DNA of 64,000 nucleotides from Patescibacteria group bacterium (GTDB taxonomy: Bacteria > Patescibacteriota > Minisyncoccia > 2-02-FULL-40-12 > IGHO2-01-FULL-4-A). The DNA is taken from assembly GCA_038064915.1 (NCBI GenBank), contig JBBTSB010000004.1:24874-88873 (forward strand), written 5' to 3'. The first letter of the stretch is position 1, and the number at the start of each line of letters is the position of its first letter. Below, piece after piece: positions 4,699-41,457 of the stretch. A program made the position numbers and the translations under genes. The notes beneath the pieces were generated by a model, which saw only the letters and a program-made list of their open reading frames with translations, ran no database searches and was not told where the DNA came from.

Positions 4699-4704
4699 AG
4701 CGTA

Positions 4705-4734
4705 TTGACAAATAGCACTCTACTGTGCTATACT
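4705..4734 (+). promoter_or_regulatory. sigma70-like promoter for the GC-rich islet A
   Basis: TTGACA, 18-nt spacer, TATACT. Confidence 0.45.
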
Positions 4735-4794
4735 ATTATCATACTGAAATCAGGGTCCGGTTGAGGAGCTAGACCTTTGAAAACTCGATTTTTC

Positions 4795-4834
4795 GGCACG
4801 TGTGGCCACCCAGGCCATACGTGCCCTTTTGTTT
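4795..4834 (+). promoter_or_regulatory. leader hairpin plus U tract (attenuator-like intrinsic terminator) in the 5' UTR of the small ORF at 4882
   Basis: GGCACGT...ACGTGCC 7-bp stem enclosing a tGGCC/GGCCa sub-stem, followed by CTTTTGTTT. Confidence 0.35.
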
Positions 4835-4881
4835 GCTCGCGACAATCCCGTCGTGGTGCAAACCGATGAGGAGGAATATAA

Positions 4882-5097
4882 ATGAAGAAGCTGGAAAAAA
4901 TCGCTAACCTCATGATAGGGGCCGGAGCTGGCATCATGATGATGACCAGTGGCATCCTCGCCCTGGGGGAGCCGACCGGCTATCTGAACATCCAGATTCT
5001 CGTCTGGATCTCCCGCGGCACATGGGGACTCATGCTCCTTGGCGGAGTTCTCATGGCAGCAGCGAAAGACCGGGAGCACGCCCACCGCAAGGCGTAG
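4882..5097 (+). CDS. small Gly/Ala-rich membrane protein (71 aa) in GC-rich islet A
   Basis: canonical SD GAGGAGG 8 nt upstream; two predicted TM segments; GC and GC3 far above genome average. Confidence 0.5.
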   Translation: MKKLEKIANLMIGAGAGIMMMTSGILALGEPTGYLNIQILVWISRGTWGLMLLGGVLMAAAKDREHAHRKA

Positions 5098-5227
5098 CTC
5101 CGGGATCGTACAAAGATGGAGGAGCGCCGACGGAACTCCGTCGTGATTTGCTCCTCCCTCCGAACTGGAGCGTGAGTGGATGTTCTTTTACCATATCTCC
5201 TCAACCCCTCATGCTCCAATTCGGGGA

Positions 5228-5260
5228 TGCCCGGTCGCTTGACTGGGCTTTTTTTATTTT
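5228..5260 (+). terminator. rho-independent terminator closing islet A
   Basis: GCCCGG tcgcttga CTGGGC followed by TTTTTTTATTTTT. Confidence 0.5.
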
Positions 5261-5284
5261 TAAAAGCGAGTATGCTTAGAGGTA

Positions 5285-33198: not shown

Positions 33199-34855
33199 AG
33201 TTACCGATGGTAGTGACGGGCTGATAGTCGGCAAGCCAGGAGTATTTTTTGTATTTTTCGTTTTGCAGGAAGGTCGCTGATATTGCGAGCCAGCCATCGG
33301 TTTGGCTCTTTTGCAAAAAATCTCGCTCATTTTTATATTTATCCGATGTAAGCCACACGAAGGAATCACCCAAGTAGTACTGCTGGTCCGCCCAGCCGAA
33401 GTAATCAAGCTCGATCTTTTTGATATCGTTTTTCTCAACCCAATCAGCGAAACGCTTCAGGTCTTGTCCCCAATCCAGGTTTGAATCGACGACATACCGA
33501 TAGCCACCACTCGGACCACCGACGGTTTGGTTAAAATATGTTAAGTAATATGGGAAAATTCGAAAGTTTTCCAAAAGAAACCATGCGATCAATACCGGCA
33601 CCGCAAAAAATACTTTCCTAGGCAAACGAACAAGTTGCCCGGAAACCAGAATGATCATGAACGGATATACGGGCAGGAGATGCCTCACGCCGATATTCAA
33701 GGTGCTATGGATGCTCGTGGCCCAATAGATCACGAGCCATAAAATCATCGCGATTTCGTCGATGTGATCTTTAAACTTGAAACGTGAAACTTTAAACCTT
33801 GCTATCGCGATTGTGATAGCGGTCAATAACAGCGCGAGCCAGGAAAGCGGTTCTTTGATCAGATAAACGAACGGAAAATAGATCGGTCCCGCGCTCGTGG
33901 TAACGGTATCTCGAAAGTAGACCGTATTTCCGCCGGCGGATCGTTGTGTTACCATAAGCAACCCCAAACCATACTGCGCAGGAGCCCGCAGGATCGGTTT
34001 TCCGGATGCCCACACAACCGGATCAGCAAGTAGTCGATTTCCAAATGTTTGGAGCAACGTTTCGGTGTCGTGATGTTGGCGGTCAATTGGATAGTGCCAA
34101 ACGTGAAATGCATACACAGGCCATACGACAACAACAAACCCAACGATCATCAACAAGGCTGTCTTGGTGATCATTCGCCAATTCCAAGTGCAAGCGACAA
34201 TCACGAAAAGAGGAATAAGAAGAACAGTCGAAAATTTCATGAGCAAAGCCAGTCCAAACATAACAGCTGCATACCAAAAATATTTTCGTGTTGGTTCTTT
34301 TAAGTAACGTACAAACCAATAAGTTGCAATGAGTACGCCAAGCGCCGCAGGAATATCGGTAGTCACAAAGCGGCTATGCGCCATGACGGTCGGTGAAAAT
34401 GAAAAGAGCGTGACCGCCAAAAGGCCAGCCTTGTCTCCATAGCGTTGTCGCGTCCACCAAAACACCATCCATCCAGCAATAATAAAGATGATAAGCGGAG
34501 GAATTTTTGCTACATGAGTAATGAGCTCAGCATTGTTGCCGGTATGGTAAATCAGTTTCCGACCAAACTCCCACTGGTCGTTGATGTTGGTGGTCCAGGA
34601 ATTTGTTGCAAATGCGTCGTGATTGAGTTCAAGAGGTAGGAGCGCAATACCGGCAAGATCTTTTGCCAACGGCGGATGCTCGGGATTGAGCCGCATATCC
34701 TGCTTTGCAACATACGAATATCCTGCACCAATGTGAGGATCCTCATCAACGATAATTGAATCATTCCAAGCGCTGGCATAAGCAACGACAGCGGCGATTG
34801 CGATAATGATTACTGCACTAGCGCGTGACAATCGAAATGAGAGTTTCATATTCAT
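33161..34855 (-). CDS. GT-C glycosyltransferase, PMT/ArnT (GT39/GT83)-like
   Basis: IVDEDPH loop-1 motif and about 11 TM segments; contains the TTTAAAC repeat element. Confidence 0.7.
   Translation of the reverse strand: MNMKLSFRLSRASAVIIIAIAAVVAYASAWNDSIIVDEDPHIGAGYSYVAKQDMRLNPEHPPLAKDLAGIALLPLELNHDAFATNSWTTNINDQWEFGRKLIYHTGNNAELITHVAKIPPLIIFIIAGWMVFWWTRQRYGDKAGLLAVTLFSFSPTVMAHSRFVTTDIPAALGVLIATYWFVRYLKEPTRKYFWYAAVMFGLALLMKFSTVLLIPLFVIVACTWNWRMITKTALLMIVGFVVVVWPVYAFHVWHYPIDRQHHDTETLLQTFGNRLLADPVVWASGKPILRAPAQYGLGLLMVTQRSAGGNTVYFRDTVTTSAGPIYFPFVYLIKEPLSWLALLLTAITIAIARFKVSRFKFKDHIDEIAMILWLVIYWATSIHSTLNIGVRHLLPVYPFMIILVSGQLVRLPRKVFFAVPVLIAWFLLENFRIFPYYLTYFNQTVGGPSGGYRYVVDSNLDWGQDLKRFADWVEKNDIKKIELDYFGWADQQYYLGDSFVWLTSDKYKNERDFLQKSQTDGWLAISATFLQNEKYKKYSWLADYQPVTTIGNSIFVYNISGPRF
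33769..33798. repeat. TTTAAAC-heptamer repeat element (reverse orientation), in frame in the GT39-like gene
   Basis: CTTTAAACTTGAAACGTGAAACTTTAAACC; the minus strand encodes RFKVSRFKFK. Confidence 0.55.
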
Positions 34856-35762
34856 TCAACATAATACCCAGAAGTAGTAGGAATAACGCTAGTGTTGCGA
34901 TTGCATGGCTTTCCTGTACGCGATGTTCATGCAGTACAACCTCATGCACGTCATATATTTGATACCATTTCCGACTGAAATCATATATCCACCACAATCC
35001 TTCCCCGGCGAAAATCATCAAGACGGGCAATAGGAGAACACTTTGACAACTTGCCACAAGCCACGATAGCAGAAGTACTTGCACGGTGGGAAAGTGTCCG
35101 TGAATTTTCCGACGTCGCCAGAGTTTTATGATGTTTCTCAACAAGCCAATAGCGCTCAATAGAGCAACGGGCCAAAAAAGCATGGGATACCCTACTACCC
35201 AGTTCATGCTGCCAAATCCATTCACCAGGTAGTGCCAGATGACGGGTGTAGCGACAATAATGCCCGTCACCATAAGCAGTGCAAACCCACTCATGAGATG
35301 ATTACGCGACGCAAGGTATTTATCATGCGAAAAATCACGCTTGATCGAGTGCCAGTAGGCCGCAACAACAACGATCAGGACCAAAGGTACGAAAACAAAA
35401 GATGTTGATGAGTAAAAGCCGAGGCCGAGCAAGCCTCCTGAAAGCGCAAAGTCAGAGAGTCGAGCGGACGTTTTTCCTTTCCAGAAAAAATACAAGCCCC
35501 ACACCAAAAAAAACGGTGCTGGAGAAATATCCCATGAAGAAACAGCCAGGAAGAAACTTGCGAGACCAGCAATTTCCCAATTAAAAAGTTTCTTGGTCAG
35601 TAGGTACGTTCCGGCAACCGTAAGCACACTTAACAGAGCGTAGGGAATAAAGACGTGATCAAGGCCTCGGAACCGAAACACAATGGCGACTACCAAAACA
35701 ATCACCACCACCCACCATTCGTGATTTCTGTGTTTCGTAGGATATATTGGCATTGAAATCAT
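34818..35762 (-). CDS. polytopic membrane protein, GT-C/ArnT-like N-terminal region
   Basis: multiple TM segments; adjacent to and overlapping the GT39-like gene. Confidence 0.45.
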   Translation of the reverse strand: MISMPIYPTKHRNHEWWVVVIVLVVAIVFRFRGLDHVFIPYALLSVLTVAGTYLLTKKLFNWEIAGLASFFLAVSSWDISPAPFFLVWGLYFFWKGKTSARLSDFALSGGLLGLGFYSSTSFVFVPLVLIVVVAAYWHSIKRDFSHDKYLASRNHLMSGFALLMVTGIIVATPVIWHYLVNGFGSMNWVVGYPMLFWPVALLSAIGLLRNIIKLWRRRKIHGHFPTVQVLLLSWLVASCQSVLLLPVLMIFAGEGLWWIYDFSRKWYQIYDVHEVVLHEHRVQESHAIATLALFLLLLGIMLNEYETLISIVTR

Positions 35763-35799
35763 TATACTCTTGCATTGTGCACTTTAGTATGCTAAAGTT

Positions 35800-36102
35800 G
35801 TGGATATGCAATGGAACACCAAGCAAACAAATGAGCTTTTCATGGCTATTTTACAGCTCAAAACGACCGACGAGGCTCGACGCTTTTTCCGTGATTTGCT
35901 TACGGAAGACGAGCTTATAGAATTCGGTAACCGTTGGCTTGCCGCACGGCTCCTTGCCAAAGGCGTTTCCTATACAAAAATCCAAGACCGCACCCGTCTT
36001 TCCAGCACCACCATCGCCCGCGTCTCCAAATGGCTGAACAAAGGTATGGATGGGTACAAATTGATGATCGCCCGCCTCTCTCATCACACCAAACCCTTGT
36101 AG
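35800..36102 (+). CDS. YerC/YecD-like TrpR-related DNA-binding protein
   Basis: LAARLLAKGVSYTKIQDRTRLSSTTIARVSKWL HTH pattern of the YerC family. Confidence 0.7.
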   Translation: MDMQWNTKQTNELFMAILQLKTTDEARRFFRDLLTEDELIEFGNRWLAARLLAKGVSYTKIQDRTRLSSTTIARVSKWLNKGMDGYKLMIARLSHHTKPL

Positions 36103-36181
36103 GAAGGGATTGTTTGCTTTCTCACGCGTTCAATCTCTTCCTGGAAGGGATTTTTTACTTTCAGGAAGGAGAGGAGAATTC

Positions 36182-36340
36182 ATGGAGTTCGAGATCGTCA
36201 ATGAGTTCATCCGCAAGGTTCAACAGCTTATCCTGGACCGAGAAGCAGGTCTCGAGACGCGCGATGCGGTACTTGATGCACTCGAAGAGCTTCTTGAAGA
36301 CGCCAAGCGTTCTCTCCATAAGCTACGCGTTGCTGAATAG
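36182..36340 (+). CDS. small acidic helical protein (52 aa)
   Basis: SD AGGAGAGGAG 6 nt upstream of ATG; the ORF track extends it upstream to 36110. Confidence 0.35.
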   Translation: MEFEIVNEFIRKVQQLILDREAGLETRDAVLDALEELLEDAKRSLHKLRVAE

Positions 36341-36385
36341 TACAACAGGGGTTGGCAGATATCCCAAAAACTGCCTTTTCAAGAA

Positions 36386-36413
36386 TTGACATCCAGGAGG
36401 TAGACGATATAAT
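36386..36413 (+). promoter_or_regulatory. promoter for the coiled-coil gene pair
   Basis: TTGACA, 16 nt, TATAAT; the ATG at 36423 is about 9 nt downstream (near leaderless). Confidence 0.5.
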
Positions 36414-36422
36414 TGAGAAATC

Positions 36423-36698
36423 ATGGCAAAGCAAACAATTCTAACAAAAGAGGATTTTGAAAGCATTTTGGATAAAAAGCTCAAGAGTCACACAAAGGAT
36501 ATTAAAGTTCATGTGACTAAAGAAATCAAAAGAGAGGTTGGTGATCTAGCCGCAATGACTGCGCGTGGATTTCGATCTGTTGATGAGCGTTTTGACCAAG
36601 TTGACCGAAAGATTGATAAATTGACGACTATATCCGAAAATCACGAGAAACGCATCAAACGCGTGGAAAAGGCGGTTGGCATTCCTGAAATTGTATGA
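36423..36698 (+). CDS. small coiled-coil protein, paralog family member 2
   Basis: 91 aa; shares LxxHTKxI...GF...ER...KL with members 1 and 3. Confidence 0.45.
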   Translation: MAKQTILTKEDFESILDKKLKSHTKDIKVHVTKEIKREVGDLAAMTARGFRSVDERFDQVDRKIDKLTTISENHEKRIKRVEKAVGIPEIV

Positions 36699-36979
36699 AA
36701 AACAAAGTGAGTAAAGAACTCCAGGAGACGGCAAATCAAGTACAGCAAGAAATCGCGGATAGATTTGTTAAGATTTTTGCACAAAAAATCGAGGAAATGG
36801 TTGAGGAATTTAGCGGGCATTTGGACAAGCACATGGATGAGCTCGAGGATTTAATTGAAGAAGGTTTTATGAGCCTCCATGAGCATTTGCAAACTTCCGA
36901 GCGTGTGAAGCAAATCGAGAAGCGGCTGAAGAAACTCGAAAAGCTTGACGAAAAAATCGAAAAGCGCTATATTACCTAA
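36695..36979 (+). CDS. small coiled-coil protein, paralog family member 3
   Basis: 94 aa; overlaps member 2 by 4 nt; shares the family motif. Confidence 0.45.
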   Translation: MKNKVSKELQETANQVQQEIADRFVKIFAQKIEEMVEEFSGHLDKHMDELEDLIEEGFMSLHEHLQTSERVKQIEKRLKKLEKLDEKIEKRYIT

Positions 36980-37064
36980 AGCATGATTTTCAACACACGC
37001 AAAACTGGATTCTGGAGCTGGACTTCACGTAACCCGTAAAGTCCGAATTTAATTTGAAAATACG

Positions 37065-37097
37065 ACTCCCTTCGGACTTTCCGGAGGGAGTTTTTTG
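37065..37097 (+). terminator. rho-independent terminator after the coiled-coil pair
   Basis: ACTCCC ttcggactttccgga GGGAGT followed by TTTTTT. Confidence 0.55.
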
Positions 37098-37173
37098 TTG
37101 GCCAGATTGATCAGAACTATTGATACATCAAGCCAGCACGGAGCCCCCGATGCTGGAGAAGGAGAGATAAACT

Positions 37174-37389
37174 ATGTCGTATGGCATACTGACCCACGTT
37201 CCGTGTAACGAGCGGAACTTCGATACTCATGGCCGCGAGCTTCGCTGCGTGTCGAAGGCGGGACACCTCGATGACCAGATTGGACATCGGTTCGAGTACC
37301 TGAACGAGGCCGAGAAGCCTCAGCCCGAGCCTCCTGAGCCACCACGTGGATGGGCACAGATGGGCCCGACGATGGGCTGGCTCACGTAA
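37174..37389 (+). CDS. small hypothetical protein (71 aa) in GC-rich islet D
   Basis: SD AAGGAG 10 nt upstream; very high GC3; Pro/Glu-rich C-terminus. Confidence 0.4.
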   Translation: MSYGILTHVPCNERNFDTHGRELRCVSKAGHLDDQIGHRFEYLNEAEKPQPEPPEPPRGWAQMGPTMGWLT

Positions 37390-37424
37390 TTCCGTTCCAT
37401 TGAGCGGTCCAACCGCTCAACTGC

Positions 37425-37462
37425 GCCGCGGAGGGGAGACCTTCCGCGGCTGTTTTATTTTT
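37425..37462 (+). terminator. rho-independent terminator after islet D ORF
   Basis: GCCGCGGA ggggagacc TCCGCGGC followed by TGTTTTATTTTT. Confidence 0.55.
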
Positions 37463-37467
37463 CAAGT

Positions 37468-37494
37468 AAAAAAAACCGCTCATGGGCGGAAAAT
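37468..37494 (-). terminator. minus-strand intrinsic terminator
   Basis: minus strand reads CCGCCCATGAGCGG followed by TTTTTTTT. Confidence 0.45.
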
Positions 37495-37549
37495 AATATC
37501 TAGCAGGGGCGGGGGTAGGACAAAACACTGTACTACCCCGCGCCCCCTA

Positions 37550-37711
37550 TCAGGTACTGGTTGCCCGGGCTTCTGCGCCCGGTTTTCCCTCCGTTGTGTC
37601 GGGGTTGTCCTTTGGAGGCGGAGTGTACCGCCTCTTCACCTCAGCGTGACGGGCCTTCTTGCGAAGATCCGCCTCCCCGAGGTCATCCATGCCTTCTCCG
37701 TAAACGGGCAT
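37550..37711 (-). CDS. small basic/disordered protein (53 aa), convergent to the islet D ORF
   Basis: SD AGGGGGA 5 nt upstream; perfect TATAAT about 60 nt upstream on the minus strand; followed by long hairpins and a U8 terminator; below the 60-aa ORF-track cutoff. Confidence 0.3.
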   Translation of the reverse strand: MPVYGEGMDDLGEADLRKKARHAEVKRRYTPPPKDNPDTTEGKPGAEARATST

Positions 37712-37813
37712 GTTTCCCCCTACATTGTCGAGCTACTCGCGCGATAGCCCGAGATTGGCGAGTTTCTACGCGATAATCCATTATAGAACTGACATTATCA
37801 ACAAGTAAAGCGT

Positions 37814-37856
37814 TTGGCACTCACCCCTTGACAGTGCCAACGCATTTTACTAAGAT
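37814..37856 (+). promoter_or_regulatory. CIRCE-like HrcA operator overlapping the groES promoter
   Basis: TTGGCACTC-N9-CAGTGCCAA (consensus TTAGCACTC-N9-GAGTGCTAA) with TTGACA inside, 17 nt, TAAGAT. Confidence 0.6.
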
Positions 37857-37865
37857 ACACATACT

Positions 37866-38153: not shown

Positions 38154-38155
38154 TT

Positions 38156-39877
<1,722 letters not shown>

Positions 39878-40972: not shown

Positions 40973-41073
40973 CAGAAGAAATGCGGGGCAGGTTTGCTGC
41001 GTTTAGATAGACTTTTCTCATATTTTTTGCGATACTGACCCCGTCCAGGCTAGAGCTTGGCGGAGGAGGGAAT

Positions 41074-41250
41074 ATGTCACCGGTGCGAGCAATTATGGGG
41101 GTGGCGGGTGCGCTCGTAGCATGCTTCAGTTTTCTTGGCATGATGAGCGGGATCGCTCCCGGATTCCTTTTTTACCTAGTCGCTTTTATCGTCGGCGGCG
41201 CATTGGTAGTGTACGCACTGCCGTCGCATTCCTACCCACCGAGACGATGA
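41074..41250 (+). CDS. small Gly/Ala-rich two-TM protein (58 aa) in GC-rich islet E/F
   Basis: SD GGAGGAGGG just upstream of ATG; hydrophobic. Confidence 0.4.
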   Translation: MSPVRAIMGVAGALVACFSFLGMMSGIAPGFLFYLVAFIVGGALVVYALPSHSYPPRR

Positions 41251-41393
41251 TACCAAACTGGACCCGGTGCTGGGCCGCGACAGCCGGAATGATTGCGGCC
41301 GGCTTCGGCGGGCACATCATCATCGCCACACTTTGCGGAATAGCGGCCCTGATATTCTGGGTTTGTTATCTCTGCGAGGACGAAGTTCGTTAA
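41247..41393 (+). CDS. small TM protein (48 aa), translationally coupled to the previous ORF
   Basis: ATGA start/stop overlap; hydrophobic with Cys pairs. Confidence 0.35.
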   Translation: MIPNWTRCWAATAGMIAAGFGGHIIIATLCGIAALIFWVCYLCEDEVR

Positions 41394-41457
41394 ACCGGGG
41401 TCGTCATGCCAAACAGGTGGACTACCCCGGGAGCTGTACTTGTGTTAGTATTTTAAT

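Follow-up and report, generated by a model that had tools for sequence, protein, structure and literature searches.

A GC-rich islet directly upstream of groES in a Patescibacteria genome, at positions 37100–37800 of the 64,000-nucleotide (nt) stretch of contig JBBTSB010000004.1 analyzed here (hereafter the window), is probably, though not securely, a lineage-restricted cassette in which two small genes converge, each with its own terminator. The islet lies between a coiled-coil gene and a groESL promoter that would be under control of a controlling inverted repeat of chaperone expression (CIRCE). It is built like ordinary small genes that end in intrinsic terminators: a plus-strand open reading frame (ORF) of 71 amino acids (aa), orf71, faces a minus-strand ORF of 53 aa, orf53, and both ORFs, the plus-strand terminator and all stems listed in a preliminary description of this DNA were located in the sequence. 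That the islet is GC rich, as the description had stated, is borne out by a GC content of 0.54–0.63 versus 0.37–0.49 upstream (200-nt intervals); with 300-nt intervals, 37137–37436 reaches a GC content of 0.607 (z 3.55) and shares the first rank within the 64 kb (mean 0.464), making the islet one of its two top GC peaks. GC is raised at all codon positions (GC1 and GC3 both up), and the high value of the islet is due to these GC-rich codons together with the hairpins of terminators and 3′ untranslated regions (UTRs).

Judged by sequence comparison, orf71 (37174–37389, plus strand) is a genuine protein gene whose N-terminal ~42 residues are under purifying selection. It follows a Shine–Dalgarno (SD) sequence AAGGAG (37159–37164, plus strand) and encodes a conserved N-terminal domain of ~42 aa and a variable Pro/Glu-rich tail. 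An exhaustive HMMER search of 1.84e9 proteins returned a homologue of similar length, P0005 (72 aa; E 1.6e-9, pairwise E 1e-20), encoded on contigs L095 and L096, and at the place of the SD L095 has GGAGGAG. Over the first 41 aligned codons the two genes differ at 12, 6, and 28 first, second, and third codon positions, respectively (chi-square p 2e-4), with a proportion of nonsynonymous differences (pN) of 0.21 against a saturated synonymous proportion (pS) of 0.95; the 29 codons of the tail are poorly conserved (pN 0.50). A homologue of similar length, third-position-heavy substitutions and a pN well below pS were our marks of a protein gene under purifying selection, and orf71 shows all three. 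Invariant between the two proteins are MSYG, C11, ERNF, RCV, AGHLDD, GH-FE, and the C-terminal GW-T. The frame of the ORF is the best of six by codon log-odds, with a GC content of 0.66/0.46/0.70 at the three codon positions, and the protein has a grand average of hydropathy (GRAVY) of -0.92.

Four of the residues kept between orf71 and P0005 are C11, C25, H31, and H38, and this pattern, C-x13-C-x5-H-x6-H, would suit a small domain that binds metal. Classical C2H2 zinc fingers have the spacing C-x2-4-C-x12-H-x3-5-H; given its own spacing and the absence of a Pfam match, we rejected this assignment for orf71. Together the two proteins constitute a new orphan family with two known members among ~15 billion predicted proteins, and the analysis thus adds one well-supported orphan small-protein family with conserved Cys/His positions. 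A word-indexed search of 5.8 billion clustered proteins with orf71 and orf53 retrieved only the queries, their 90% clusters being singletons, and neither islet ORF, nor its L095 counterpart, matched an entry of Pfam, PHROGs, NCBIfam, PADLOC, or the sequences of the PDB. Two further HMMER matches, P0004 (2460 aa, nine stretches) and P0006 (five stretches), were discarded, as their matches lie in a repeated unit or in the low-complexity tail (PQPEPPE) and not in the N-terminal domain. The tail segment at 37291–37343, FEYLNEAEKPQPEPPE, resembles the linker EYTLNEVENPVPEPPEKKE found in many repeats of P0004, with a misleading E of 2e-12; because the conserved N-terminal domain of orf71 is unmatched in P0004, this likeness is probably low-complexity convergence.

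The 3′ UTR of orf71 is conserved as well. A post-stop hairpin, TTGAGCGG-TCCAA-CCGCTCAA (37400–37420, plus strand), is found in L095 with three double (compensatory) changes among its eight pairs, and the intrinsic terminator that follows at 37425–37462 (plus strand; GCCGCGGAGGG/CCTTCCGCGGC and a T-run) is identical there in 11 of 11 pairs. The terminator stem (37425–37450) has 11 base pairs (bp), nine of them GC pairs, and runs into TGTTTTATTT, which is to say a GC-rich stem–loop directly before a U-run on the transcribed strand, the form that defines a Rho-independent terminator. A conserved block on this side of the islet reads GCCGCGGAGGGG...CCTTCCGCGGC, and the exact terminator pattern was found only in the population of this genome and in L095/L096. 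The plus-strand gene, SD and terminator thus stand as they were first described, with the ORF and the terminator now seen to be conserved. In its SD, ATG, short ORF, GC-rich hairpin with U-run, and in the purifying-selection pattern of orf71, the islet is like ordinary small-protein genes with Rho-independent terminators; it is unlike them in that orf71 belongs to a two-member family without known relative and in a GC content that greatly exceeds the host genome's. Small ORFs of the orphan or hypothetical kind are abundant in the genomes of Patescibacteria, also known as the Candidate Phyla Radiation (CPR).

Comparison of groES loci delimits the islet. The closest GroES matches are from metagenome-assembled genomes of Patescibacteria/Parcubacteria, and the host is a groundwater bacterium of Parcubacteria/Paceibacterota-like type. 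Two Logan assemblies and contigs from groundwater of the Hainich H51 well contain DNA that is 100% identical; as the islet is present identically in several assemblies, its junctions are not an artefact of one of them. For the 94-aa coiled-coil protein encoded upstream, a single homologue was found, P0003 (54% identity), and through it locus L084, which belongs to the closest relative found (GroES 95% and GroEL 89% identical). There, a mere 7 nt separate the stop codon of the coiled-coil gene from the repeat TTGGCACTC-N9-CAGTGCCAA with its embedded TTGACA, followed by TAAGAT and groES. Since blastn homology to L084–L089 picks up again at 37813, the 833 unalignable nt of 36980–37812, from the stop of the 94-aa coiled-coil gene to the CIRCE-like groES operator, are specific to the lineage. 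The more distant locus L005 (GroES 81% identical) has only ~200 bp between the gene for a PMT_2-type glycosyltransferase and groES, and none of 80 groES loci of related species contains the islet.

A second islet occupies the same site upstream of groES on the contigs that encode P0005. The order of genes in L095/L096 is a TrpR-like gene (80% identical), small coiled-coil genes (37–51%), an extra TrpR-like gene with an 84-aa ORF, P0005, a GC-rich stretch reaching a GC content of 0.67, a CIRCE-like element, and the start of groES. Given this shared neighborhood, the islet is inherited and syntenic in at least two lineages and not a one-off. The slot between the PMT_2 gene and groES (35763–37865; L005 3799–4000; L084 4986–5470; L095 1–2810) is hypervariable: here its content is a YerC/YecD TrpR-like gene, three ORFs (76, 91, and 94 aa), and the islet; in L084 a single 92-aa coiled-coil gene, the homologue of the 94-aa protein; in L005 ~200 bp; and in L095 the same set as here plus a second TrpR-like gene and the 84-aa ORF. 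A hypervariable small-gene slot directly upstream of a presumably CIRCE-controlled groESL promoter is hereby documented.

No further islet was detected in scans of genomes, metagenomes and viral contigs with orf71, orf53, the alignment of orf71 with P0005, and two conserved DNA patterns, and 16-mer matches in viral contigs proved to be chance matches to A-runs. Neither blastn nor tblastn found a match in phages or plasmids. The islet does not classify as a mobile element: no terminal inverted repeats were among the repeats found, there is no second copy in the window, and it has no similarity to phages, plasmids or viral contigs. The 6-nt sequence TAAAGC occurs at both islet junctions and is unconvincing as a boundary given the divergence.

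These data also bear on the possibility that the islet is a decaying fragment acquired horizontally, its atypical GC content reflecting foreign origin and its ORFs and hairpins having no present function, which we regard as improbable. The GC content of 0.6 against 0.46 for the genome, a GC3 of 0.70 against 0.47 in long genes, codon log-odds that are negative against host usage, the absence of the islet from the closest relative as well as from 80 other groES loci, and the status of both ORFs as orphans among 5.8 billion clustered proteins would all fit such an origin. A decaying fragment would, however, hardly show the clear purifying selection on orf71 between lineages with saturated synonymous sites, nor the conservation of SDs, of the minus-strand promoter described below, of terminators and of hairpins, the latter with compensatory changes; GC richness is held in both lineages despite an unalignable middle of the minus-strand unit, and phages, plasmids, viral contigs, metagenome contigs of the JGI (scanned with protein patterns of orf71 and of its P0005 alignment), and the groES-flanking loci of related genomes yielded no donor.

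The second gene of the proposed cassette lies on the minus strand, and its parts would comprise a sigma-70-like promoter abutting the CIRCE-like operator, an SD with ATG, a frame of 53–56 codons, a long GC hairpin, and a short hairpin with U-run. The promoter-like sequence TTTACT-18-TATAAT (37809–37780, minus strand) stands back to back with the groES promoter, and L095 has TTGCAA-17-TATGAT at the homologous place. The SD, AGGGGG (37716–37721), and its spacer (together 37712–37721, minus strand) fall in a block, AGG(G/A)GGGAAACAUG, that is conserved between the lineages, with CATGTTTCCC invariant; SD and ATG form the best-conserved block of the unit. Further minus-strand blocks conserved with L095 are the start region GGAT(T/C)ATCGCG, UCGCCAA, CAACGGAG, GUACCUGA, and CCAUGAGCGG, the last followed by U7-8. 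Directly 3′ of the stop codon of orf53 (37550–37711, minus strand), a long GC hairpin, GGGGCGGGGGTAG/CTACCCCGCGCCCC (37506–37547, minus strand), is predicted by folding; L095 has a hairpin at the same place with different distal pairs and five double changes, a count that depends on the alignment.

The unit closes with a short hairpin, CCGC-CCAUGA-GCGG, and U8 (37468–37489, minus strand; stem CCGC/GCGG at 37476–37489), a probable although weak terminator. At this site a 17-nt block, AAAAAAACCGCTCATGG, is identical in L095, and the 3′ arm and the U-run are conserved. The preliminary description had placed a U8 terminator at 37468–37494, and the U8 and a hairpin are indeed present, but the stem has only 4 bp and thus falls below the threshold of five pairs in our terminator scan. 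Its account of orf53 likewise holds for the coordinates, the SD and the TATAAT, but the peptide is not basic (10 Lys and Arg versus 10 Asp and Glu, isoelectric point 6.55).

Considered on its own sequence, the minus strand appears to carry a conserved transcription unit whose orf53 frame evolves too fast for confirmation as a protein. The frame of the ORF alone is open in both lineages, the L095 counterpart having 56 aa, and it is retained across indels of 24 and 27 nt between conserved blocks; an ExxLRKK block, with one synonymous CTT to CTC change in a Leu codon, and a (T/S)TE block are kept in frame. In both ORFs GC2 is the lowest of the three codon-position values and first codon positions are purine-rich, and translation of orf53 may be regarded as compatible with the open frames and this coding-like composition. 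The peptide is rich in Gly, Pro and charged residues and is probably disordered; it would be very hydrophilic, with composition and not sequence kept between the lineages (GRAVY -1.35 versus -1.60, Gly 9.4% versus 10.7%). That the unit makes a fast-evolving, disordered micro-protein seems to us to lie just on the favorable side of even. The two genes of the cassette would then be independent, their terminators insulating them from each other and from their neighbors, with the plus-strand unit producing the small, possibly metal-binding protein and its transcription ending at the conserved hairpin and terminator.

Several observations weigh against a reading of the islet as two protein-coding genes. 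It is known from two lineages only, within each of which the contigs are 100% identical, and with no population variation there is little statistical power. Gene predictions differ between sources: a Logan contig has both small ORFs annotated as genes, and on the ENA contigs from this population the islet is left without any gene. A promoter scan found no convincing sigma-70-like promoter for orf71, and the AlphaFold2 model of its protein, built on a two-sequence alignment, is poor (predicted local distance difference test score 56), so that metal binding is a reading of the Cys/His pattern only. The peptide of orf53 and its L095 counterpart lack significant similarity (BLASTP E 3.5), and their in-frame global score (z -0.56) is no better than that of shuffled sequences or other frames, so that orf53 does not show the pattern of a protein gene under purifying selection. 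The probability that the frame is open by chance is ~0.21 x 0.24 in the two lineages, jointly ~0.05, which is weak evidence for the ORF; the reading frame of the 8-nt sequence GTACCTGA at its 3′ end differs between the lineages, as does that of GUACCUGA. The minus strand of 37460–37800 also folds unusually well (z -4.56 against dinucleotide shuffles; plus strand z -2.65), and the coding stretch of orf53 does so here (z -4.09), the homologous L095 stretch reaching only z -1.43.

Much of this would be expected if the minus-strand unit, running from ~37773 down to 37468 (~300 nt), were a regulatory or dual-function small RNA with a functional 5′ region and a 3′ hairpin and terminator, in which orf53 is incidental and orf71 is still a protein gene. 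Conservation lies in the promoter, the 5′ blocks, the long 3′ hairpin, and the terminator and not in the peptide; in L095, too, folding is stronger on the minus than on the plus strand (z -3.28 and -1.87, respectively); open frames of this kind are common in GC-rich DNA (P ~0.2 each); and GTACCTGA is kept whatever the reading frame, the hairpin just upstream of it being swapped in L095 from CCGGGC/GCCCGG to GCGGCC/GGCCGC. We nevertheless consider such an RNA unlikely, if worth keeping in view, given that the best-conserved block is a perfectly placed SD with ATG, that blocks remain in frame across both indels, that the lone Leu-codon change is synonymous and would break an alternative stem with a GCAA tetraloop, that codon-position composition is coding-like in both lineages, and that no Rfam family matches. 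Of the base pairs in the minimum free energy (MFE) structure of the window, 55 of 101 can pair in L095 versus 32–39 in slid controls, with three compensatory changes in an anchored alignment, and in the reverse comparison 59 of 115 pairs can form, with five; about half of the predicted pairs are thus shared, and the three to five compensatory changes lie nearly all in the 3′ hairpin.

The dense RNA structure noted for this region is real insofar as the listed stems exist, but it does not hold up as a separate feature, as neither the internal stems nor a global fold is conserved. Both stems inside orf53, CCGGGC/GCCCGG (37565–37582) and GGAGGCGGA (37614–37622)/TCCGCCTCC (37668–37676), the latter enclosing 45 nt, were read in the sequence and are predicted, and neither is shared with L095; they are by-products of composition and not part of a conserved RNA fold. 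Structure is conserved only in the 3′ UTRs, namely in the post-stop hairpin, the terminators and the long GC hairpin. A scan of the whole window with Rfam 15 at gathering thresholds returned no family, and at E<=10 no hit was consistent between the two homologous islets (the best, RT-3, scored 17.8 bits against a threshold of 40.5 and is absent from L095); ARAGORN found no gene for a tRNA or a transfer-messenger RNA (tmRNA) in the window. The failure of the preliminary description to match the stems to tmRNA, RNase P, signal recognition particle (SRP) or 6S RNA is hence confirmed, and no known RNA explains the region.

A new large structured noncoding RNA, be it a divergent counterpart of RNase P RNA, tmRNA, SRP RNA, or 6S RNA or a new type altogether, with GC content marking its helices, would account for high GC in a mid-GC genome, for the many stable stems and for the strongly negative folding scores, features shared with GC-rich structured RNAs such as RNase P RNA, tmRNA, SRP RNA, 6S RNA, OLE, GOLLD, and ROOL. 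We hold it to be very improbable: in contrast to those RNAs, the islet has no Rfam or ARAGORN match, the weak hits below gathering score differing between the two islets, and conserved structure only in 3′ UTRs, with internal stems unconserved and a z of only -1.43 in the ORF region of L095; half of the islet is demonstrably coding (orf71), and a terminator on each strand lies in its middle. A conspicuous patch rich in GC and stems can accordingly be an ordinary pair of small genes and not a hidden RNA, which calls for caution in GC-based searches for noncoding RNAs in Patescibacteria.

The convergent arrangement of small units with adjacent 3′ ends also recalls a type I toxin–antitoxin pair, that is, a small toxin ORF with a convergent antisense RNA over its 3′ end. 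Loci of this type encode a small hydrophobic membrane toxin, and their convergent transcripts overlap at the 3′ ends, as for example in txpA/RatA. Here, however, neither peptide is hydrophobic (GRAVY -0.92 for orf71 and -1.35 for orf53), each unit has its own terminator, and these stop at 37462 and 37468, 5 nt from each other, and do not overlap; PADLOC, Pfam and NCBIfam give no match. The islet does not classify as such a locus, and we give this explanation hardly any credence.

The boundary of the islet toward groES is formed by an inverted repeat, TTGGCACTC-N9-CAGTGCCAA (37814–37840), which would qualify as a CIRCE operator: the published consensus is TTAGCACTC-N9-GAGTGCTAA, two inverted 9-bp arms around a 9-bp spacer at chaperone promoters (PMC1676014), and the repeat agrees with it at 15 of 18 positions, with eight of nine palindromic pairs. 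Together with the groES promoter it spans 37814–37856 (plus strand), with the -35 element TTGACA in the spacer and right arm and TAAGAT as -10 element, and it is nearly identical in three lineages (L084 5421–5463, L095 2760–2802). The arrangement is like that of CIRCE/HrcA groESL operons in that the islet stops 1 nt before a 9-N9-9 repeat overlapping the groES -35 element, and unlike it in that the islet lies outside the operon, with terminators parting orf71 from groES and the minus-strand unit divergent. The -35 element of the minus-strand promoter is 4 nt from the repeat here and 13 nt in L095, and through this proximity HrcA occupancy could repress the minus-strand promoter together with groESL. 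No hrcA was found among the ten ORFs of 300–370 aa scanned in the window.

Hydrophilins are defined by a hydrophilicity index above 1.0 and a Gly content above 6% (PMC7448490), values that both the orf53 peptide and its L095 counterpart formally reach, in a weak test of composition only that covered just these two frames of GC-rich DNA. Composition kept in place of sequence, a gene beside a heat-shock operon, and a promoter next to its operator are points of likeness to hydrophilins; unlike these, orf53 has no homology to any known hydrophilin and is known here as a predicted ORF only. It could be imagined that the minus-strand unit is a new stress-linked dual-function RNA or hydrophilin-like micro-protein that shares the CIRCE/HrcA operator with groESL and is induced with the chaperonins, and that orf71 takes part in this response as a new metal-binding domain of very small size, a combination we judge quite doubtful. 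The chlamydial HagF (PMC12154930), which modulates the HrcA circuit as a small lineage-specific factor, might be an analogue. If true, coregulation of the divergent unit with groESL would extend the very small stress regulon of these reduced bacteria by a lineage-specific member; none of this bears on any long-standing open question.

Upstream of the islet, the 91-aa and 94-aa coiled-coil genes (36423–36979) overlap by 4 nt (ATGA at 36695–36698), and the corresponding pair in L095 (93 and 90 aa) has the same overlap; the two genes are probably translationally coupled. An intrinsic terminator of the TrpR-like/small coiled-coil cluster follows at 37064–37098 (plus strand; 13-bp stem at 37064–37092, then TTTTGTT), and upstream of it the end of the 94-aa gene (36901–36916) pairs with post-stop sequence (36985–37000) as a 16-nt inverted repeat of 81% complementarity. 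The paralogue of a PMT_2-type membrane glycosyltransferase beside the cluster (34818–35762, minus strand) has only 311–314 aa and is without a recorded Pfam hit; the L084 and L005 counterparts reach 518–522 aa, and the short copy may be shortened or decaying. On the other side, the 83-nt spacer between groES and groEL (38154–38236) is very AT-rich with many GGAAATT/AATTG repeats; the two genes abut in L084 and L006, and their gap is ~200 nt in L005. The rest of the 64 kb encodes housekeeping genes, for example for MurG, MreB, Obg, XseA, MnmA, GlpX, and an aldolase. Two further GC peaks (4700–5280, z 3.55; 40973–41457, z 3.3) are also without long ORFs, and both hold small hydrophobic Gly/Ala-rich ORFs with a strong GGAGG SD, for example at 4882–5097 (71 aa), the first peak also having a leader of ~150 nt after a promoter-like TTGACA...TATACT; GC peaks seem to mark small-protein genes generally in this genome.

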